A stretch of 64,000 bases of DNA from Candidatus Thorarchaeota archaeon (GCA_003345545.1 PRDH01000044.1:32001-96000); one strand, 5' to 3'; shown: positions 5,693 through 51,556, numbered from the stretch's first letter. Program-made: numbers and translations. The notes: generated by a model not told the origin, from the letters alone.

Positions 5693-6538
5693 CTACTTCA
5701 TGGGCACTAGACTTGTGTATTGTTTCACCCGTGGGTCTGCCGTTGGTGGTGCAGGATATGCCCATCGAGCATCGATATCGCGCCCGCTCAAATCAAAGAC
5801 ATTGAAGCTGCCCGAGGACCATGTCAGGGGACTGAAACCAAGGAGGAGGGTCTGTGTACGCCAGCTTGTTACCACGAGATGTCTGTTCATGCCTGCCGTA
5901 GGAACCACGAGGAAGACGTTGGAGAGTTCCATTAGTAGTGACGTACTGATTCGGTAGAAGAAGGTGTATGTCTTTCTATGCTCCTCTGTCCCTTGCTCAC
6001 GAAGGTCGTTGAGGTATCGTACGATGGTTTCGTCATGAACCGATGGATCCATAACATCCGAGAGCTCCTGAACGTCGACTACAACGGCGGTTTCGAAGTA
6101 GTAGGCAAGTGGGAACTCTGTGATGTGAAAAACGATGAACTTGTCTTTGCTAATGGCCTGGTAGAGATGCTGAAAGATGGCCTGTTTTGAATAGAGTGAG
6201 TTGGGATCAAGCGATGCCGGTGTGAAATTGTCAGATTCATCAGAAACAACTAGTCTGAACATGTCATCAAGCATATCGCCATCGTAGCCTATTCGCACCA
6301 TGTGATAGGGCAGATCTGTAGAACCCTCTTCCATTCTTCCTGTCGACACAAGAAACTCGTTGAAGTCTCGCTGAAATGTATCGACCTCATTGTCATTATC
6401 GGTCACAAAGAGCGATTGGGTAGGAGTGCCAAGAGAAGAAACAACCTTCTCATAGGACTGGAACCTTGTCTTCTTCTCGGTCTGAAATCCCTTCATGAGT
6501 TCATCCATGTTGCGAGAAGAGTCTGCCAAGTGTTCCAC
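5693..6538 (-). CDS. hypothetical protein
   Basis: 281-aa ORF filling the gap between pok and coaBC, GTG start after GGTAGGT; no family recognised. Confidence 0.7.
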   Translation of the reverse strand: MEHLADSSRNMDELMKGFQTEKKTRFQSYEKVVSSLGTPTQSLFVTDNDNEVDTFQRDFNEFLVSTGRMEEGSTDLPYHMVRIGYDGDMLDDMFRLVVSDESDNFTPASLDPNSLYSKQAIFQHLYQAISKDKFIVFHITEFPLAYYFETAVVVDVQELSDVMDPSVHDETIVRYLNDLREQGTEEHRKTYTFFYRISTSLLMELSNVFLVVPTAGMNRHLVVTSWRTQTLLLGFSPLTWSSGSFNVFDLSGRDIDARWAYPAPPTADPRVKQYTSLVPMK

Positions 6539-8027: not shown

Positions 8028-8390
8028 TCAAAGGATCTCAAGCAAGGCTTCAGCCATCCGTTTCATATCCATGAATATGAGCCCGAGCTGAGCATCAACC
8101 TTTGCCAGGACAAGGAACACTGCGCGGTCGCCCACAGACGTTATGAGCGTGTATCCCTTGGAACCTTTTACATAGATTTCCATGAGACTTCCACGATCCA
8201 GCTCCACAGTGGCCTTCTCTCCAAGAGATGTAATCGCTGCGCTTATTGCAGCAACATTCTCCTGTTCGCTTTCGGGCAAGGCAGATGCAATCATGAGCCC
8301 GTCTGGAGACACAAGTGCAGCGCCTTCTACGCCGGGGACTGTTTCAAAATCACGGATGATTTTATTGATACTGTCGACGCGAGTGGACAT
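8028..8390 (-). CDS. roadblock/LC7 domain protein (MglB-like)
   Basis: GVEGAALVSPDGLMIASAL, AAISAA..SLG, V.GSKGY, LGLIF; ATG 8390 preferred over the 8417 ORF start. Confidence 0.92.
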   Translation of the reverse strand: MSTRVDSINKIIRDFETVPGVEGAALVSPDGLMIASALPESEQENVAAISAAITSLGEKATVELDRGSLMEIYVKGSKGYTLITSVGDRAVFLVLAKVDAQLGLIFMDMKRMAEALLEIL

Positions 8391-8490
8391 GCTAGAACCC
8401 TCTGCCAATCCGAACAAAGGCTAGTCCGTGCAGTATATATAAAACCTTATTGCAGGCACGGCAAATGCGCATTTTGATTGAAAGCACGAA

Positions 8491-12422: not shown

Positions 12423-13310
12423 CTAATCATCCTCAATGCCGAGCAGGTCTGGATCGAAGTCCTCATCTCCTTCATCATCATCCGGAATCTCCTCTTCCTC
12501 AGGCAAGGCATCTCGCAAATCGTCAATCATGCGTCTAAGTCTTCGACGAGTCGCCTTTGGGATATCCCACATCTTCTGTTCAGCTCTATCAAGTACCTCT
12601 CTAGCAATACCAAGAATCTCTGCTTCAGAGTAGTTCTTTGCAGCATCGACAAAAAGCTCAGCAGCTCTCTTCTCATCGCCACTCGTTTCGGAGATGTCAC
12701 CAAGGAATGAGAGTGCATCTGCAATGCCTTCCTTGTCGCCCATATCTTCATAGAGTTTCAGAGCCTTCTTGATTGTAGCCTGAGCGTTCGTCCAGTCCTC
12801 TTTGTCAGCGTATGCAGCTCCCATGTCCATGACAACACTTGCCATTCCTTGGTCATTCTCAAGGGCCTTGTAGGCCTTCTGTGCCTTCTTGAAGTACTCC
12901 ATTGCTTCATCGAAGTTGCCATGCCCAAGATTTGCCAGGCCAAGACCATAAATTGCATCTGCAACGCCATTCTTGTTAGAAGCCTTCTCAAAGAGTTTCA
13001 TGGCGGTTTCCAACGACAAGAGTGCTTCATCCCAACGCTCCAGATTGATACTTGCGACGCCGAGGTTGTAGATAGTATCACAGCTACCGTTTTCATCCTT
13101 CAATTCCTTGTAGATACGCTGGGATTCCTCAAAACACTTGTGGGCCTCCTCGAACTCCTCAACAGACATGTAGATATTGCCTGCTGCATTGAACATCTTA
13201 GCTGCCTCATCCTTCTGTCCGGATGCGAGGGCGGCTGCTGCCTGCTCCAAGAGCTCAGCAGGATTCATGTCTTCCAAAGCAACGTCGGGGTCTTCTGTCA
13301 TAAGGCGCAC
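12423..13310 (-). CDS. tetratricopeptide repeat protein with acidic C-terminal tail
   Basis: ~40-aa TPR repeats (TIYNLGV..WDEAL; AIYGLGL..FDEAMEYFKKA; DMGAAY; ADALSFLG). Confidence 0.85.
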   Translation of the reverse strand: MRLMTEDPDVALEDMNPAELLEQAAAALASGQKDEAAKMFNAAGNIYMSVEEFEEAHKCFEESQRIYKELKDENGSCDTIYNLGVASINLERWDEALLSLETAMKLFEKASNKNGVADAIYGLGLANLGHGNFDEAMEYFKKAQKAYKALENDQGMASVVMDMGAAYADKEDWTNAQATIKKALKLYEDMGDKEGIADALSFLGDISETSGDEKRAAELFVDAAKNYSEAEILGIAREVLDRAEQKMWDIPKATRRRLRRMIDDLRDALPEEEEIPDDDEGDEDFDPDLLGIEDD

Positions 13311-13429: not shown

Positions 13430-14131
13430 TTATCGCTGCATGATGCTGACAGGTTTCTCCAAGAGGTGGCGTACAGCATCCTTGACCTTGAATTGTTCAT
13501 CACCCACTTGTACCTCAAGGAGTTTTCTCAGCTCAAAACGTCTGAGATAGCCAACGGCCTGGTCGCGTTCGAGATTGAGGTCCTTCATCAATTTCTTGAG
13601 GCCATCTTTTGCCCCGCTGTACTTGGCGAATTTCCCGAAGACAGTGCTCCATTGCATCATGACAAGATAGAGTAAGGTTCGAAGCATGCTATCCACATTC
13701 TCCCCAGTCTTTGCAGACACCGGAAAAACAGGAAGACCAGCCAAGAAGCGCAAGTTCATTCTGAGCGAGTCGATTGGTCGAGCTCCCTGCAAGTCCTGCT
13801 TGTTTGCAGCTACAACACAGGGCACTCCAGGAAGGAAGAATGCTATCTCTCGAAAGAAGAGCTTTGCTCTGGCATCAGAGTCCGGATCTACTGAATCAAC
13901 GACAAAAATGATGCCGTCTGCTCCCGAACTCAGTATCTTTCGCATAGTTCGAAATCGTAGAAGGCCCGGTGTTCCGAACATGAAGACACTCATGCCATCC
14001 ACATTGGCTAGACCATGATCCATCGCAATAGTTGTACCTCTGCGTTCGATATTGATGCATTGTCCATTGGTAATGTGGTAAATCATTTGGCTTTTGCCGG
14101 CTTCATATGGCCCAGTCACGACAATCTTCAT
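13430..14131 (-). CDS. small ATP/GTP-binding protein (CvnD/MglA-related) with C-terminal helical/wHTH extension
   Basis: VVTGPYEAGKS, TTIAMDHG, FGTPG..RF, FVVDS, ANKQDL, VSAKTG. Confidence 0.87.
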   Translation of the reverse strand: MKIVVTGPYEAGKSQMIYHITNGQCINIERRGTTIAMDHGLANVDGMSVFMFGTPGLLRFRTMRKILSSGADGIIFVVDSVDPDSDARAKLFFREIAFFLPGVPCVVAANKQDLQGARPIDSLRMNLRFLAGLPVFPVSAKTGENVDSMLRTLLYLVMMQWSTVFGKFAKYSGAKDGLKKLMKDLNLERDQAVGYLRRFELRKLLEVQVGDEQFKVKDAVRHLLEKPVSIMQR

Positions 14132-44073: not shown

Positions 44074-44877
44074 TTATTGTACTAGAATACCCATGCTGAC
44101 AAGAGTGGAGCGTGCCCAATCTGTGAGAATCACTGGCTTTTCACGACCAAAGACCTTGACTGATCTAAGGATGTCAGCTCTCAGGAGGCCGCTCGTGTAG
44201 TACGAAATCAAGCTCTTATCGACATCAAGAACCTTGCTGATCTCTGCCTGTGTTGTCTGCCCGTTCTTCATGCACTCAAAGAGAATCGATCCCACTGTAG
44301 GATTTCGTGAGAGTGCAGCTAGGAGAAGGACTCTATCCTCGGCTGAGAAGTCAGGGGGGAAGATATGACGGACATTGCCATACCTTATTGATACTACCTC
44401 ACGTGCGTCTTCCAAGCTCTTCAGATGATATTGGAGAGCACCCATTGCACATCCCAGGCTCCTGTGAAGCTGACGCAGATGTACACCCGGGTCAGCAGTG
44501 ACTTCCTCCACAATTCTATCTCGGAGTCTTAGAGCTCGACGATCTCTGGTACGCTCGAGCGATATTGTCCCAATAATCAATGCCCACAGCCCTACGTCAG
44601 CGGATGGAGGAGTCCATTGAGTCCAGAAGTCAAGCGTGCCTATGCCAGCCACCAGAAATGAATCAAGAGAGAAATTCATAGTGCCGCTACTGACTATGCT
44701 CAGGGCAAATCCAAGGTCTAAGACAGCCTGATTATTGTTCAATGTTGCGGGTAGAAAAGGAGCAACCGAGTCCGCATCGCCATAACTTGATTCTGACAGA
44801 GCAAACCCAACTACACTCCACGTGATAAGGAGAAAAGAGAGTCCAATGAGGAGTTTTCTAGCGACTTGGCTGCTCAT
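44074..44877 (-). CDS. membrane-anchored double winged-helix transcriptional regulator
   Basis: N-terminal hydrophobic segments; R..I...V...PG.HLRQL.R.LG...GALQYHL..LE; second HTH TQAEISKVL...KSLISYY. Confidence 0.8.
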   Translation of the reverse strand: MSSQVARKLLIGLSFLLITWSVVGFALSESSYGDADSVAPFLPATLNNNQAVLDLGFALSIVSSGTMNFSLDSFLVAGIGTLDFWTQWTPPSADVGLWALIIGTISLERTRDRRALRLRDRIVEEVTADPGVHLRQLHRSLGCAMGALQYHLKSLEDAREVVSIRYGNVRHIFPPDFSAEDRVLLLAALSRNPTVGSILFECMKNGQTTQAEISKVLDVDKSLISYYTSGLLRADILRSVKVFGREKPVILTDWARSTLVSMGILVQ

Positions 44878-44945: not shown

Positions 44946-45503
44946 CTACGGAGTGACGCCTCGCGCTGGATATGTCAGTGTGATCTTGAAGGTGCATGTA
45001 TCGGCACCGGCAGACATGCAAGTATCCTCACTGACAATCAATTTCTCGTACTCAATTCTATTGAAGTCGGTAAGATACTCCAAGACTGCCTCTATGAAGC
45101 CTTTCAGAAAATAACAGGATGGCTCTTCGCTCTCATAACCGGAGGCATAGGGATTATCGCCAACTTCGATAATTGCTTCCTCGTCAAGCCACAACTTGTA
45201 CAACTTGGCTATTCTGATATCGCCAAAGGGAACGATGAGTGTTTCCAAAGCCATCTTGATGAACTCAACTATTCCTTTGAAATCACCAGGGGGCTTTTGC
45301 TTGCCTACCTTGAAGTACTCTCGTTGGGCCTCAAGACCTGCAAGTCGACCAGCTGAATAGTACAGGTCACGTACACGATCTGGGAACATGACTGCAATAC
45401 GACTGCCAATCTTGTTCCAAGTCTTGGCGAAAAACGCAGACATCAGATCACGATCTTTCAGCCGACCCTGCCACCAAGGAATCACTCTTTCCTCTTTTGA
45501 CAT
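44946..45503 (-). CDS. V4R domain protein
   Basis: LYYSAGRLAG helix; NPYA..PSCYFLKGFIE..EDTCMSAGADTCTF. Confidence 0.85.
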   Translation of the reverse strand: MSKEERVIPWWQGRLKDRDLMSAFFAKTWNKIGSRIAVMFPDRVRDLYYSAGRLAGLEAQREYFKVGKQKPPGDFKGIVEFIKMALETLIVPFGDIRIAKLYKLWLDEEAIIEVGDNPYASGYESEEPSCYFLKGFIEAVLEYLTDFNRIEYEKLIVSEDTCMSAGADTCTFKITLTYPARGVTP

Positions 45504-45564
45504 GTGAGAGTCCTCTAATGAACGATTCAGTATGAAACCGCGTTAAGTGCTTTGTTATAATCAG

Positions 45565-46038
45565 CTATGTGAGACGCACATTCCAGACACACATATTTGC
45601 ACCTGTTGCACGCGATTGCTCTTGGAAGACTTTGGCATCCACACCCTTGAACTGGAGTATGGACTCAAGTATACCACTGAAGACTTCGCAGTATCCAAAG
45701 CCACGCATACCCTCTAAATTGACGTCTTGACACCAAACACAGCTTTCGTCAGTGATGCGAACAGACCCACGTGCACTCTTCATATCCACATCATTCGGAC
45801 GTTTGTCGTACAGTGCCTTGTAGACTATCTCGATTAGCTTGGCAACATCCTCGCGCGTCGTGACACTGTCTTTAGTCTTTTCTACGATTTCAGTGTTGAG
45901 ATATATCTGTTGACCAATCTCATGACCCAAGTCACGGAGTTTCTGATTTGCTTCATCGATGTTGGATGTTTCAGAGAGCACACGATCTACGTAGTGCGCA
46001 TAGAGGCTGAGTAAAAGGGGGTTTTCTGTCTTTGGCAT
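45565..46038 (-). CDS. V4R/Bet3(TRAPPC3)-like protein
   Basis: ANQKLRDLGHEIGQQI; CVWC, YCEVFSGILE, GANMC; ATG 46038 after AGGTG. Confidence 0.75.
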   Translation of the reverse strand: MPKTENPLLLSLYAHYVDRVLSETSNIDEANQKLRDLGHEIGQQIYLNTEIVEKTKDSVTTREDVAKLIEIVYKALYDKRPNDVDMKSARGSVRITDESCVWCQDVNLEGMRGFGYCEVFSGILESILQFKGVDAKVFQEQSRATGANMCVWNVRLT

Positions 46039-46062
46039 CAGATTCGCACCTATCAATTACTA

Positions 46063-47049
46063 TTAGACAGTCTTGCCAATCATCTTCAGTCCAGCTTTTC
46101 TATACTTGGCAAGGATCTGAACAATCTTCGGGAAGGGAAGGTTCGCTTTCTCAGCTATTTGCTCGGGAGTCAGTCTTCCATCACACATTCTGATGATCTG
46201 GACGTCCTCGCCAGCAACTTTCGAGAGGTCACCCTCAAACCTGGGACACTTCACATACCTTCCTAGTTGAGGACCTGCGCTTGCCACTGAAGGGGCTTGT
46301 GGAACCTCATCCACTCGTGGTACGACGATTATGCCTCTTGTGGCGCTCCACTTAAGAAGATCAATTATCCTATCTGTCGGTTGAAACATCGAATCTGCAA
46401 TGGTGTTCACAGAGTTCCCTCCATCGACCAACATAAGCACGTCAAAGCCAAAATTGCGATAGAGACCCTTCATCTCCTTGTACAATGCAGAATCAAGTGA
46501 CAAAGAATTGCCGTACTCAGGACCTCTTCCGGGGACCGTCGTGGTGGTCACATTGAAGTCATTGACACTCAGTTGCTCTGGCACTTTGATGGGCACAACA
46601 GGAGCAGAACCCTCAGGGGAAGGAGCAGGTAGCGTAGTTGCCTCAACGGAAGCAGCCTTGACAGCAATGCTCTCAAGGACTTGAATATTCAACTCGGAGG
46701 ATTCCTCAAAGTCCTCGGGGGGCGGCGGCAGTTCAATACCTTCAAGAAGACGCAGGACATTCTTGGTCTTGGCAATAGCTAGTCCAAGCTGAAGTTCAGG
46801 AACGTATAGTACTGTCAATATCCAGTTTTCGTCAACAGGGGACAGGACAACGAGGCCTTTTTCGGTATCGATTGTCATTAGGCGAAGGTCCGCCTTGTAT
46901 AGCTTGATGCTGTCTTTCACTCGCGGGAACAGCTCGTCAGGAAATGCAAAACTTACAAATGGCCTGCCAATTTTCGTCATCAGGGAATATCCAAGAACCT
47001 GATCGTCGAATCTCAGTTTGGATAGGGCTTGCTCGAGATTTTTGGACAT
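46063..47049 (-). CDS. roadblock-like domain + Pro-rich linker + two winged-helix repeats (copy A)
   Basis: VLGYSLMTKIGRPFVS..GLVVLSPV..WILTVLY..LGLA; LVDGGNSVNTIAD and MCDGRLTPEQIAE; ATG 47049 after GAGGTG. Confidence 0.7.
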   Translation of the reverse strand: MSKNLEQALSKLRFDDQVLGYSLMTKIGRPFVSFAFPDELFPRVKDSIKLYKADLRLMTIDTEKGLVVLSPVDENWILTVLYVPELQLGLAIAKTKNVLRLLEGIELPPPPEDFEESSELNIQVLESIAVKAASVEATTLPAPSPEGSAPVVPIKVPEQLSVNDFNVTTTTVPGRGPEYGNSLSLDSALYKEMKGLYRNFGFDVLMLVDGGNSVNTIADSMFQPTDRIIDLLKWSATRGIIVVPRVDEVPQAPSVASAGPQLGRYVKCPRFEGDLSKVAGEDVQIIRMCDGRLTPEQIAEKANLPFPKIVQILAKYRKAGLKMIGKTV

Positions 47050-47225
47050 AGCACTACACCTCACGGACACTAGCCTGACCGAGAACTGCCCGTACAACCT
47101 CTACTCTCCAAAAGTTTTCTGAAAAGGATTGCGGTTGTGTTGTGGCTTTTCATAGTAAGAATCAATCAAAAACTGTTAAGAGGGGACCACCCACACGCAT
47201 GAAGACACTGTCAAGAGGAGATTCG

Positions 47226-47807
47226 ATGAGAAACCTAGTGGGCGGACTCTTAGGAATAGTCGTGGGTTCATGCGCATTTGTTGGTGTGACTGGACTTCTA
47301 CCGCCACAGCCAGCATACCCAGAACCATTCAATACGATATGGTTCATTCTAGATGGAAGTTGGTCACTTCAGTCCACCATCCAAGGGCTCTTCAATTACC
47401 CAACAGCAGCTGCATATCTGATATCATGGATCATAATCGGAATGATAATCGCACCTTTCTCACGGAAAGGATGGAATACTCTCCGATCGGCTTTATGGGT
47501 CGGAGTCTTTCTTGCCATCTTTGCTTTGATATCCCTGCTTTTGAAGAATCCGTCATTCTGGGATGTTGCCCTGAATCCGATGAGGAACTACGCTCTAGTA
47601 ATCCAGTTTGCCATGTCTATGGTTGCATCTCTCTTTGTCATGATAAGTGCTCTTCCAATTACCGCGGCTGTCGAGATGGTGCGGCGGACCGCAGAGCCAC
47701 CTATTCCAGGAAAGATCGAAACTGTATGCCAATGTGGCGCTGTCTTCAAATCAAATCCACTGATCTGTTCTGAGTGTGGTGCAATTCTCAGGAATTCAGA
47801 CGATTAG
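47226..47807 (+). CDS. membrane protein with C-terminal Zn ribbon
   Basis: ~4 TMs; CQCG..F.SNP.ICSECG; GAGGAG RBS. Confidence 0.78.
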   Translation: MRNLVGGLLGIVVGSCAFVGVTGLLPPQPAYPEPFNTIWFILDGSWSLQSTIQGLFNYPTAAAYLISWIIIGMIIAPFSRKGWNTLRSALWVGVFLAIFALISLLLKNPSFWDVALNPMRNYALVIQFAMSMVASLFVMISALPITAAVEMVRRTAEPPIPGKIETVCQCGAVFKSNPLICSECGAILRNSDD

Positions 47808-48322
47808 CGATCCCTAGTAATCCCACCACCAAGAATGGCACCGATGATGCACGCGATGCATGGATAGATAGCTCCCTCTAGAGCAACTTCCATCAAGAGC
47901 AGTGACCCGGGTGCAAAAATGGCTGCGATGTCAAAATCTGGAGAAATCACGAATATGAGGAGCCATGTCAAAAGAGCACCTATGATAGCTGCAAACACAG
48001 CAGCCAAAATAGCAGGCAGGAAGTCCTTTGACATAAGACCAGCAATCAGACCAGCTGCTCCCCATGCGAGAAACATTAGGACCGAGGCACCAGTAGCACC
48101 ATAGCCGACTACGCTTCCAAGACTGGATCCTCCCAAGGCTGATGGATAGAGAATCGTGCCAACAACAGCTATTCTGATTTCGAGGTCACTATTGCTGAGG
48201 AAATCCTGTACGACTGTGGGGGATATTAGATCAGCAGGCATGTAGGTTCCGAATGTCATAACGACGAATGTGATGGCGAATGCAGTTATGAGTCCGAATA
48301 TCGTGCCTAGACCTTGACCCAA
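47804..48322 (-). CDS. small Gly/Ala-rich integral membrane protein
   Basis: 4-5 hydrophobic segments with GxxxG-like motifs; GGAGG RBS; 4-nt convergent overlap. Confidence 0.75.
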   Translation of the reverse strand: MGQGLGTIFGLITAFAITFVVMTFGTYMPADLISPTVVQDFLSNSDLEIRIAVVGTILYPSALGGSSLGSVVGYGATGASVLMFLAWGAAGLIAGLMSKDFLPAILAAVFAAIIGALLTWLLIFVISPDFDIAAIFAPGSLLLMEVALEGAIYPCIACIIGAILGGGITRDR

Positions 48323-48402
48323 TCATTAGCCTCCATAAATGGTACTTACACGATAGTTTCGCGCTAAGTGTTTTATACCTATTCCGGATGGCCAGTCACA
48401 CA

Positions 48403-48909
48403 CTAATCTCGGAGAACAAGCGTCCAAGTACAGGTTTCATCGCCAACTGCCTTGCAGGACTCCTGATAGCTCTCAGCTGAGAACCCTCGCAGTTTCATGA
48501 CCGCATCGAACACTCCGCTCACAAGCACGCAGTACTGAAGGCCGGGCATGTCTGAAATAGACACACCTTCACAAATAGGACAGATGTCGTCAGTGAATTT
48601 GATTGTTCTCTTATCCTTACTGACTTCAATTCTGGTGAAGAATTGTCCTGAGTTCACCTTATACGCAAGCTGCAATGTTTTTGAGAACGTTGGAAAGTCA
48701 ACTGCATGTTGTCGGATTCTATCGGCATAGTCCATTAGAAGTGTTTCACCAACTCGAAAACCAATGTCCTTCATTTTTCGATTGATCTCTTCAACATTAT
48801 TACTTGTACTCATGACTAGGTTCACAAGCTCTCTATAATTAGCTTGGAAAAGAACCTTCGACACTTTGGTCGTCATGAATCTCCACGCGATTTTCCCTTT
48901 AATACTCAT
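48403..48909 (-). CDS. Bet3(TRAPPC3)/V4R-like protein
   Basis: KVSKVLF...YRELV, EINRKMKDIGFRVGETLLMDY (Bet3-like), CPIC, LQYCVLVSGVF, ESCKAVGDETC; start 48909 rather than 49119. Confidence 0.78.
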   Translation of the reverse strand: MSIKGKIAWRFMTTKVSKVLFQANYRELVNLVMSTSNNVEEINRKMKDIGFRVGETLLMDYADRIRQHAVDFPTFSKTLQLAYKVNSGQFFTRIEVSKDKRTIKFTDDICPICEGVSISDMPGLQYCVLVSGVFDAVMKLRGFSAESYQESCKAVGDETCTWTLVLRD

Positions 48910-48916
48910 TTTTTTT

Positions 48917-49864
48917 TCAAACTCCTGATTTCTTGTCTGTAAGTACCATTTTAAGAGTCTTCCCACGGTAGGGAAGAATGCTCTGTAAGACTTGGAAGTA
49001 TTGCATACCAAGCTGTGTGGCAATTTCCTGAAGGCTTCGTGTTCCGTCGCAGAGCGCGAGGACGGAGCGATGCTCCTTCTTTGCTTTCTCAATGTTGCCT
49101 TCAAAGAGAGGTATCCCAATTATCTCTTTTTGTCTAGTTTCCTCTGGTTCTGGGCACTGCACATCAACAACCTTCTCTGCCAGACACCATTTAACGATCT
49201 CTTGTACTCGTTCTACCGGTTTTGTTAAAGCTCCAGCTATCGTATAGATCGTCATCTTCTGATCGATAGTGAGAAGAATATCGATAGCAAGGTTGGAGTA
49301 GGCTTTCTTCAACGTGGCATTGAGAGCTGAGTCAAGAGTCATAGCATCTCGATACCTCTCCCCCCGAAGGACAACGCATCCGTGATGCAGCTCTATAGCT
49401 TCTGGGCGGGTCGACGTTTCCTCGACAACAGAGGGTATGGCTTCTACCACAGGAGCCGATGCTGACTCCATGGAAGCCTCAGGCCCGGTTGGCTCAGAAA
49501 CGAGAACCTCATCTGCTTCAACAGGAACCGGAGGCGGTGGAAGTACTACTTGTTCCAAGAGCTCGACAACTGATTTCGCTCTGGAGAGTGCAGTACCAAG
49601 CGTAAGCTCTGGTGTGAAGAGAACAGCAAGAACCCACTGAGGATCCACTCGTGACAAGATGACGCTTCCGTGGCTGGTCATGATATTGACGAGTTTCAGA
49701 CCACCCGCGTGAATCTTGAGCGTGCCCTTGATTTGAGGCACAACCTCGTCTGGAAGTGAGAAGGAAAGGAAAGGCTGGCCATCGTTTGTAATCAACGCAT
49801 AGCCTGTCACGGACTCATCGAATTTTAGCTTCGTGAGTACGCGTTCTAGTTCCAACTGGTTCAC
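48917..49864 (-). CDS. roadblock-like domain + Pro-rich linker + two winged-helix repeats (copy B)
   Basis: Clear paralog of 46063-47049: KLKFDESVTGYALITNDGQPFLSFSLPDE, LPPPP, LDSAL, DILLTID, LFEG, LCDGTRSLQEIA. Confidence 0.72.
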   Translation of the reverse strand: MNQLELERVLTKLKFDESVTGYALITNDGQPFLSFSLPDEVVPQIKGTLKIHAGGLKLVNIMTSHGSVILSRVDPQWVLAVLFTPELTLGTALSRAKSVVELLEQVVLPPPPVPVEADEVLVSEPTGPEASMESASAPVVEAIPSVVEETSTRPEAIELHHGCVVLRGERYRDAMTLDSALNATLKKAYSNLAIDILLTIDQKMTIYTIAGALTKPVERVQEIVKWCLAEKVVDVQCPEPEETRQKEIIGIPLFEGNIEKAKKEHRSVLALCDGTRSLQEIATQLGMQYFQVLQSILPYRGKTLKMVLTDKKSGV

Positions 49865-51028: not shown

Positions 51029-51478
51029 CTACACTTTCTTGAGTGCGGCTTTGACCATCTGTGTGATGCGATCTTCTGTGATGCCTGTCTTCTCGGCCAC
51101 CTTAGCGATGTCGCAGTATGCAAGGTCAGATATCGTTTCGACTCCAGCAGATGTTAGAAGTTTTGCCTCTTCAGCAGTCACTGACTTGAGCATAGAGAGC
51201 CCATCGACAGATTTCTTTGCACTTGCAGCAGCAGCGCTCTCCTCCTCCGCTAGAGCCTTGATGAATTCTTCAAGGTCCTTCTGATACTGCTTCAATGCTT
51301 CGATATTTTCAGGATATGCAGTCCTTCGTCTCATATCAACAAGGAGACCCATCTTGCGAGCATCGTCCACAGTGAGTCCTGATTGTACAGTTTCTTCAAT
51401 ACTGAATCCGCGGCCACGTCTGAATCGAGCATCAGCTGGTGACTTCACAGCCGGCTCAGCGATAATATCAAAGCTCAT
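51029..51478 (-). CDS. rpl13e: 50S ribosomal protein eL13 fused to a C-terminal helix-hairpin-helix domain
   Basis: RRGRGFSIEE...GL....ARKMGLLVDMRRRT..ENIEALK; C-terminal L..V....A..L..AGV.TISDLA......A..TGI. Confidence 0.85.
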   Translation of the reverse strand: MSFDIIAEPAVKSPADARFRRGRGFSIEETVQSGLTVDDARKMGLLVDMRRRTAYPENIEALKQYQKDLEEFIKALAEEESAAAASAKKSVDGLSMLKSVTAEEAKLLTSAGVETISDLAYCDIAKVAEKTGITEDRITQMVKAALKKV

Positions 51479-51556
51479 CGATTCTTCCACCTGACTCGGG
51501 CCTCGAGCCTTTGGTCTACTTATCAAGCTTTCGAGATGGACAAAGAAGAGACAAGC

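Follow-up and report, generated by a model that had tools for sequence, protein, structure and literature searches.

A duplicated roadblock-winged-helix and Bet3-like gene pair of Thorarchaeota as a candidate GTPase-regulating module

We analyzed a stretch of 64,000 nucleotides (nt), referred to here as the window, from the genome of a Candidatus Thorarchaeota archaeon (GCA_003345545.1, PRDH01000044.1:32001-96000). Its positions 44,946 to 49,864 hold a cassette in which two paralogous genes, A1 and A2, are each followed by a gene for a Bet3-like protein, B1 and B2, respectively. A V4R gene, B3, trails behind the second pair, and two membrane protein genes, M1 and M2, separate the two copies. 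A reading made from the sequence alone (the original prediction) had named these seven open reading frames (ORFs), and we located each of them exactly where it had been placed. The source metagenome-assembled genome (MAG) is a Thorarchaeota genome of 2.69 Mb in 82 contigs, 93% complete. DNA nearly identical to it is found chiefly in wetland metagenomes. Below, f numbers denote Asgard families, G numbers genomes, L numbers extracted loci, and C numbers contigs of the genome G000. The features of the locus are as follows, with positions in the window, the two winged helices of the A proteins being called wH1 and wH2, and with amino acids (aa), transmembrane (TM) and winged helix-turn-helix (wHTH) abbreviated.

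48917..49864, minus strand: A1, with a predicted roadblock domain (aa 1-105), an acidic linker with LPPPP, wH1 (about aa 153-233) and wH2 (about aa 250-315)
48403..48909, minus strand: B1, a TRAPPC3/Bet3-like Zn-Cys protein with the N-terminal extension MSIKGKIAW (Pfam TRAPP, conserved Cys)
47804..48322, minus strand: M1, a Gly-rich membrane protein with about five predicted TM segments (hydropathy; homologue in f14)
47142..47807, plus strand: M2, a 4-TM membrane protein with a C-terminal Zn ribbon (hydropathy; homologue in f14)
46063..47049, minus strand: A2, with a predicted roadblock domain, linker, wH1 and wH2 (AlphaFold2 model)
46735..47049, minus strand: the A2 roadblock domain, aa 1-105 (superposition on LAMTOR2)
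46315..46557, minus strand: A2 wH1, aa 165-245, an NPRL2/NPRL3-type extended winged helix (structure search)
46066..46263, minus strand: A2 wH2, aa 263-328, basic, generic wHTH/RRE-like, with the motif CDGxxT/SxxEIA (HTH_47, structure search)
45565..46038, minus strand: B2, putative orthologue of Thor-TRAPPC3 (match to 7YH3)
44946..45503, minus strand: B3, a V4R-domain protein (Pfam V4R)
44074..44877, minus strand: a membrane-anchored double-wHTH protein of HVO_0163 type (HTH_HVO_0163_N, 59.6 bits, and HTH_24)

The genes follow one another as A1, B1 and M1 on the minus strand, M2 on the plus strand, and then, again on the minus strand, A2, B2, B3, the membrane-anchored double-wHTH gene and an ABC transporter. 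As had been claimed, a Bet3-like gene starts 7 nt (A1 to B1) or 24 nt (A2 to B2) downstream of each A copy, and the gaps from B2 to B3 and from B1 to M1 measure 61 nt and 80 nt. M1 and M2 lie tail to tail, their 3′ ends sharing 4 nt, while M2 and A2 diverge from each other about 90-150 nt apart. By hydropathy and ORF analysis, two convergent membrane genes do stand between the copies, and M2 has four predicted TM segments ahead of a C-terminal CxC..CxxC ribbon.

The pairing of the two genes extends well beyond Thorarchaeota. A Bet3-family profile found strong homologues in the families f1, f2, f4, f14, f15, f16, f30, f31, and f33. We inspected 35 loci for the winged-helix/Bet3 pairing with home-made hidden Markov models (HMMs). 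In f1, f2, f4, f6, f14, f16, f26, f27, f30, and f33, a gene with a wH2-type winged helix is the direct upstream neighbor of a Bet3-like gene and shares its strand. In the distant families, the N-termini of these upstream partners have a roadblock- or longin-like sequence pattern. The two parts are also found fused, as a longin-like domain with Bet3 in f21 and f31, and as an N-domain, a winged helix and Bet3 in f33. Synteny across relatives thus bears out the predicted pairing in about ten Asgard family-level lineages. From this wide pairing together with the fusions, the A-B pair is very probably a functional unit, as far as sequences can tell, and the conservation of the two genes side by side, along with their fusion, speaks for a physical complex of the products.

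One may ask whether the genes simply stand side by side by inherited order and do no joint work. Within Thorarchaeota there is material for this view. The cassette occurs in 26 species-level Thorarchaeota loci, and in these the whole 13-gene neighborhood from GlnA to the ABC transporter, including eL13 and PfkB, is syntenic, so that the synteny in Thorarchaeota alone is weak evidence for cooperation. A gene for eL13 lies nearby in f14 too, and B1 is decaying in one Thorarchaeota sub-clade. However, the pair is kept in some ten family-level lineages with varying genes around it, fusions of both parts exist, and the gaps of 7-24 nt suggest co-transcription, with one RNA-library contig bridging A2 and B2. 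We therefore consider inherited order a very improbable explanation. Three related Thorarchaeota MAGs show the decay of B1, with A1, M1, M2, A2, B2, and B3 all retained: a remnant of 22-28 aa is left in L019 (3131-3214) and L023 (about 5744-5809), and L021 (3025-3516) has an in-frame stop. As A1 is intact beside the decayed B1, the tie between the two is not obligatory.

Turning to the A proteins, A1 (315 aa) and A2 (328 aa) are 34% identical from end to end (E 1e-61) and have LPPPP, LDSAL and the repeat motifs in common. The two paralogues foreseen by the original prediction are thereby confirmed except in one detail, since the first repeat of A1 has no 'DG' and reads TIDQKMT. With A as the query, 82 of the family's 85 genomes show two copies, and f14, f15, f17, and others give weaker matches. 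A2 is about 70% identical across Thorarchaeota. Among 1.84 billion proteins, its family accounts for no more than 26 cluster representatives, and a Protein Atlas search returned nothing beyond 'hypothetical protein' clusters. Pfam gave weak matches only, to HTH_47 and DUF742 for A1 and to HTH_47 (27.4 bits, at the C-terminus) and Robl_LC7 for A2. With Robl_LC7 (PF03259), A2 scored 12.6 bits (E 0.12) against a gathering score of 23, and A1 gave no match.

The AlphaFold2 model of A2, built on a 46-sequence alignment, has a mean predicted local distance difference test (pLDDT) value of 86. By DSSP, its aa 1-105 run alpha-beta-beta-alpha-beta-beta-beta-alpha (helix 3-13, strands 18-25 and 30-34, helix 38-54, strands 58-61, 66-71, and 76-82, helix 88-102). 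This domain superposes on LAMTOR2 (1sko_B) with Z 13.2 and a root-mean-square deviation of 2.2 Å over 103 aa, on an Asgard roadblock with Z 13.1 and on MglB with Z 12.1. In the model, the N-terminus is therefore roadblock-like, as had been proposed. An acidic, partly disordered linker with a net charge of -9 follows, and the C-terminal half, which reaches pLDDT 91 when modeled alone, is predicted to fold into the two expected winged helices.

NPRL2 and NPRL3 (yeast Npr2 and Npr3) form a heterodimer in GATOR1/SEACIT, which acts as a GTPase-activating protein (GAP) for RagA. When the full A2 model was searched with Foldseek, the top matches were GATOR1/SEACIT chains (9o5a_H, 9o5d_D, 8adl_S, and 9h4q_T; E 1.4e-6 to 2.4e-6), aligned at full length to chains of 360-405 residues and ranked above plain roadblocks. 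With the C-terminal half, the first 13 matches were all GATOR1/SEACIT chains. VIA alignments place wH1 on residues 163-236 of NPRL2 (Z 9.9, 2.1 Å, 74 aa; the same range in 6ces_N), on residues 233-306 of yeast Npr2 (Z 9.6) and on residues 247-325 of NPRL3 (Z 9.4). Compared with 48,161 PDB representatives and no Foldseek pre-selection, wH1 again found NPRL2 and Npr2 first, the next match having Z 7.9. The domain searches proposed along with the original prediction thus point to an overall NPRL2/NPRL3-like shape. We conclude that A, going by its model, is probably built like or works like NPRL2/3, and we leave family membership unclaimed.

A catalytic arginine finger and a GP motif before strand 2 are traits of NPRL2/NPRL3 (PMC12290439). 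The beta1-beta2 hairpin reads GRPF in the A2 orthologues and GQPF in A1, that is GxP and not GP, and the motif is absent in f14. The GxP hairpin with its Arg in A2 is taken as a lead only.

Two further loci of G000 bear adjacent paralogous genes for longin-like double-winged-helix proteins: on C3 (L082 823-1917 and 1987-3264, plus strand), followed by a MinD/ParA-like ATPase gene, and on C24 (L084 976-1878 and 1878-2705, plus strand). These longin-winged-helix pairs suggest that heterodimers are a recurring theme, as in NPRL2/3.

The Bet3-like proteins could be assigned more directly. B1 (30.8 bits) and B2 (41.2 bits) pass the cut-off of 27 of Pfam TRAPP (PF04051) and are its sole two matches in the genome; B3 reaches 39.5 bits with Pfam V4R (PF02830), for which the cut-off is 31, and weakly resembles MJ1460. 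The V4R/Bet3-like, Cys-bearing nature of B1 and B2 and the trailing V4R gene were thus rightly seen in the original prediction. The identity between B1 and B2 is 23% (E 2e-25), and B3 shows no more than a marginal similarity to B2. The structures 7YH3 (SMTZ1-45) and 7YH2 (AB25) are crystal structures of Thor-TRAPPC3 from Tran, Akil, Senju and Robinson 2024 (PMC10933270). B2 matches 7YH3 over the full length (E 2.9e-87), and B1 matches it with E 6e-21 and eukaryotic TRAPPC3 with E 3e-5, better than B2 does. By these matches, B2 is the orthologue and B1 a paralogue of the crystallized Thor-TRAPPC3. Of the B2 cysteines 100, 103, 117, and 150, C100, C103, and C150 are invariant among 38 sequences and C117 is nearly so. 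The conserved set fits the Zn(Cys)4 site of Tran et al. (PMC10933270), and B2 is accordingly predicted to have a Bet3 fold with such a site. An N-terminal extension of the MGxKGxxxW type is found in B1-type proteins and in homologues outside Thorarchaeota and is lost in B2.

In a maximum-likelihood tree of the Bet3-like proteins, the B1 clade is sister to a clade of B2 and the single copy of the sister family f2 (support 99/94), and B2 sits on a long branch. The tree and the shared N-terminal extension lost in B2 place the duplication in the Thorarchaeota order. B3 is specific to this order, where it invariably follows B2 and is found in 78 of the 85 family genomes and in the sister family. 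We explain the locus best by assuming that a two-gene module of older Asgard origin was duplicated specifically in Thorarchaeota.

A natural split of the A gene tells which part goes with which neighbor. In every f14 genome examined, A is divided. At one f14 locus, a gene for a roadblock domain joined to wH1 by a long Pro/Thr linker comes first, and genes homologous to M2 (E 2e-7) and M1 (E 3e-7) come next. The other encodes a different, CxxC-bearing N-domain with wH2 and, directly after it, a B1-type protein that is 42% identical to B1. By genomic association, wH2 thus goes with the Bet3-fold protein and the roadblock-wH1 half with the membrane proteins, so that the membrane genes are linked to that half. 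Beside the pair, we found M1/M2 homologues in Thorarchaeota and f14 and none elsewhere. The N-domain of the f14 wH2 protein (L037 1471-2037 and L038 1465-1947, both on the minus strand) carries CxxC and HGxPxH..YLD and has no Pfam match.

This arrangement could also belong to a membrane complex that handles a ligand or peptide and involves no GTPase. Cavities of the Bet3-fold subunits would carry a lipid or another hydrophobic ligand, M1/M2 would form the membrane site, and an RRE-like winged helix would grip a peptide, for example the MGxKGxxxW tail of the B1-type proteins. The link of M1/M2 to the roadblock-wH1 half in f14 suits such a complex, and so does the conservation of the N-terminal extension on Bet3-like partners in many lineages. 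Tran et al. treated Thor-TRAPPC3 alone, as a homodimer, and proposed ligand binding or transport from its cavities (PMC10933270). The winged helices do match PqqD/RRE peptide-binding domains in sequence and fold, but weakly (Z about 5.5; E 0.02-0.05). In addition, B2 has no N-terminal extension, and yet A2-B2 is the best-conserved part of the locus; nor is any specific ligand indicated. On balance, we find this explanation improbable.

MglB, Ragulator, GATOR1, and TRAPP all use dimers of roadblock or longin domains as platforms for GTPases, a role that such dimers have, to our knowledge, in every characterized case. In the TRAPP core, longins are flanked by Bet3-family subunits. Because of this platform role, the Bet3-longin arrangement of TRAPP and the pairing with fusions, we rank a GTPase-regulating complex first. 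By this analogy, a small GTPase at the membrane would be under the control of an adaptor/Bet3-fold complex, which a ligand in the Bet3-fold cavities might gate; we put the probability of this reading at roughly 45%.

In such a complex, gene 1 would encode an adaptor whose N-domain, a roadblock here and longin-like elsewhere, is joined through a disordered acidic linker to one or two winged helices, and gene 2 would encode a Zn(Cys)-stabilized protein of the Bet3/TRAPPC3 fold with ligand cavities. The A and B products would assemble, the C-terminal winged helix holding the Bet3-fold dimer. The roadblock domains would dimerize, and A1 would probably pair with A2, as NPRL2 does with NPRL3 or LAMTOR2 with LAMTOR3. 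M1/M2, tied to the roadblock-wH1 half, would bring the assembly to the membrane, where it may act as a small-GTPase regulating platform, possibly gated by a hydrophobic ligand in the Bet3-fold subunits. Guanine nucleotide exchange factor (GEF) or GAP activity, which had been proposed for the module, is pure inference.

GTPase genes do occur beside the pair in other families. In G308 (f30), three tandem Rab-like GTPase genes stand directly ahead of the pair, in G309 (also f30) a partial one does, and in f33 a GTPase gene is divergent to the fusion gene. Over its full length, the longin head of the G308 partner weakly resembles Sybindin (the TRAPPC1/C4 family; E 0.028); this possible likeness is likewise no more than a lead. 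The G308 locus (L046 1244-7029) runs from the three Rab-like GTPases through the longin-winged-helix and TRAPPC3-like genes to a gene for a 659-aa protein, apparently a MoxR-type AAA+ ATPase with a vWA domain. No other candidate operon offers a clearer chance to pair a GTPase with the module.

Several observations weigh against a GTPase-regulating complex of NPRL2/3-like build. In the present genome, there is no GTPase gene within about 30 kb of the cassette, and in f5, f15, and f17 tandem Bet3-like genes have no winged-helix neighbor. We found no NPR2/NPR3 Pfam match in A at E up to 1 and none to PF06218 in the genome, and the profiles A1 and A3, compared with PDB sequences, retrieved zero NPRL chains. 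The N-domain of A opens with a helix and fits roadblocks best, and it does not have the longin topology (beta-beta-alpha-beta-beta-beta-alpha-alpha). To these points we add the 13-gene synteny in Thorarchaeota and the decay of B1 next to an intact A1 described above, and two more that concern wH2 and the V4R domains.

wH2 is basic, with an isoelectric point (pI) of 9.5-9.7 (9.7 in A2), and resembles ordinary DNA-binding wHTHs. Its structural matches are generic winged helices only (MarR, ArsR, AsnC, NarL, and RRE; Z 5-6), and its weak Pfam matches are to HTH_47, TrmB, and MarR. V4R is the effector-sensing domain of bacterial transcription activators of the PoxR/DmpR type (PMC10933270, PMC2253512). 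The cassette could accordingly be imagined as a ligand-responsive transcription switch, in which Bet3/V4R sensors control DNA binding by wH2 and so regulate the adjacent transporter and membrane genes. The surroundings agree with a switch in that the membrane-anchored wHTH gene and the ABC transporter follow in Thorarchaeota and a PadR-like gene and an ABC transporter adjoin the f4 pair. However, wH1 is far closer to the protein-binding winged helices of NPRL2/3 (Z 9.6-9.9) than to DNA binders (Z up to 6), the roadblock or longin heads and the GTPase neighbors found elsewhere would have no obvious role in it, and a long acidic linker is atypical of such regulators. We see a transcription switch as possible but rather unlikely, and the GTPase-regulating complex stays our preferred reading.

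In three metatranscriptome libraries, there are contigs that map to the membrane-anchored wHTH gene, B3, A2, and M1, and one contig of 343 nt spans the A2/B2 junction. A1, B1, and M2 had no such coverage, which, given low-depth contigs, does not imply silence. The contigs lend weak support to transcription and to co-transcription of A2 and B2; they are assembled, and DNA carry-over is possible. Complex prediction with full-length A2 and B2 scored 0.03 against a mark of 0.32. The predicted interface between the partners gained no support from this score, which says nothing either way.

The nearby genes call for a few remarks. The protein encoded at 44074-44877 has one N-terminal TM segment followed by an HVO_0163-type and a MarR/HTH_24-type winged helix, and the RNA-library contigs on its gene stem from three studies. 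Its gene lies between B3 and the MacB/FtsX-type ABC transporter, a position kept in the 26 Thorarchaeota loci; it is a syntenic neighbor whose membership of the module is uncertain. Genes for a Robl_LC7 roadblock (71.6 bits), a TPR/SNAP-like protein and a Ras/Arf-like GTPase are found at 8028-8417, 12423-13310, and 13430-14131, all on the minus strand, about 31-37 kb from the cassette and surrounding an ORF of 1275 aa. This group may be a separate GTPase module. A distant roadblock relative, P0139, is encoded among PHP and ETF genes at a locus with no Bet3-like neighbor. At 51029-51526 (minus strand), the window encodes a ribosomal protein eL13 core (Pfam L13e, 42.6 bits) with a C-terminal helix-hairpin-helix (HHH_5, E 3e-4). 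The position of this gene is kept in the Thorarchaeota loci, and the eL13 gene of f14 lies near the roadblock-wH1 gene.

Which Asgard roadblock/longin, TRAPP-like and GTPase proteins cooperate is an open question of eukaryogenesis. Tran et al. noted that the genome layout rarely helps to match such proteins, the GTPase, roadblock, longin and TRAPPC3 genes of MK-D1 being generally not in shared operons (PMC10933270). The pair, the fusions and the f14 split name concrete partners, wH2 being matched to a Bet3-fold protein and the roadblock-wH1 half to two membrane proteins, and the f30 arrangement in G308 names candidate client GTPases. With a pairing that recurs in this way, the idea of a possible archaeal forerunner of the eukaryotic complexes for GTPase control can be tested. 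One partner is already known to express and crystallize, which puts co-purification and GEF/GAP assays within reach; Thor-Rab, too, was purified by Tran et al. If the complex acts on a GTPase, parts of TRAPP and GATOR1 would be tied to one archaeal operon. Going further, the Asgard pair might be the survivor of one ancestral membrane-associated GTPase-regulating complex, the parent of the TRAPP core, with its longin and Bet3-family subunits, and of the NPRL2/NPRL3 arm of GATOR1, with its longin and winged helices. In Thorarchaeota, A1/A2 and B1/B2/B3 might together form a hetero-oligomer that M1/M2 anchor. We give this larger idea only a small chance.

The original prediction had taken the architecture to be undescribed, which stands in part. 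Thor-TRAPPC3 and a Heimdall longin-TRAPPC3 fusion have been published (PMC10933270), as have NPRL2-like proteins of Thorarchaeota (10.1101/2020.10.19.343400). Our full-text literature searches found no paper describing the A-B pairing; the operon-level pairing, the duplication and the membrane partners seem undescribed so far. In the paper of Tran et al. (PMC10933270), unlike here, there is no description of the upstream roadblock-winged-helix gene, the duplication or the membrane genes.

Liu et al. (bioRxiv, 10.1101/2020.10.19.343400; Nature 2021) placed NPRL2-like proteins in most Thorarchaeota MAGs, and TRAPP and V4R go unmentioned in the preprint. The distribution and architecture of these NPRL2-like longin proteins fit A. 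The family of Liu et al. may, however, correspond to the other longin-winged-helix genes of this genome (contigs C3, C24, and C41) rather than to A.

Among known systems, the actinobacterial conservon (CvnB roadblock, CvnC DUF742, and CvnD GTPase) likewise combines a roadblock with a small wHTH-type domain. Unlike the conservon, the cassette has neither a GTPase nor a sensor-kinase gene and has a Bet3-fold partner instead. A1 scored only 16.3 bits with DUF742 against a cut-off of 27 (E 0.009), and neither the cassette nor its immediate surroundings hold a GTPase gene. LAMTOR2/3 and MglB are the closest structural matches of the A N-domain (Z 12-13) and are dimeric GTPase platforms, but they are single-domain proteins with neither winged helices nor Bet3-fold partners. 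With NPRL2/NPRL3, the A proteins share an N-terminal domain of the roadblock/longin superfamily followed by winged helices, and the A paralogues are encoded together just as NPRL2/3 are heterodimeric. They differ from them in having no detectable sequence similarity, a roadblock rather than a longin N-domain and a generic wH2. With Thor-TRAPPC3 and eukaryotic Bet3, B1 and B2 have in common the passing of Pfam TRAPP and the retained Cys ligands of the Zn site. The eukaryotic TRAPP core offers the likeness that its Bet3-family subunits adjoin longin subunits. In the cassette, unlike in TRAPP, the partner of the Bet3-like protein has a roadblock in place of the sybindin-type longin and, in addition, the winged helices that are missing from the TRAPP longins.

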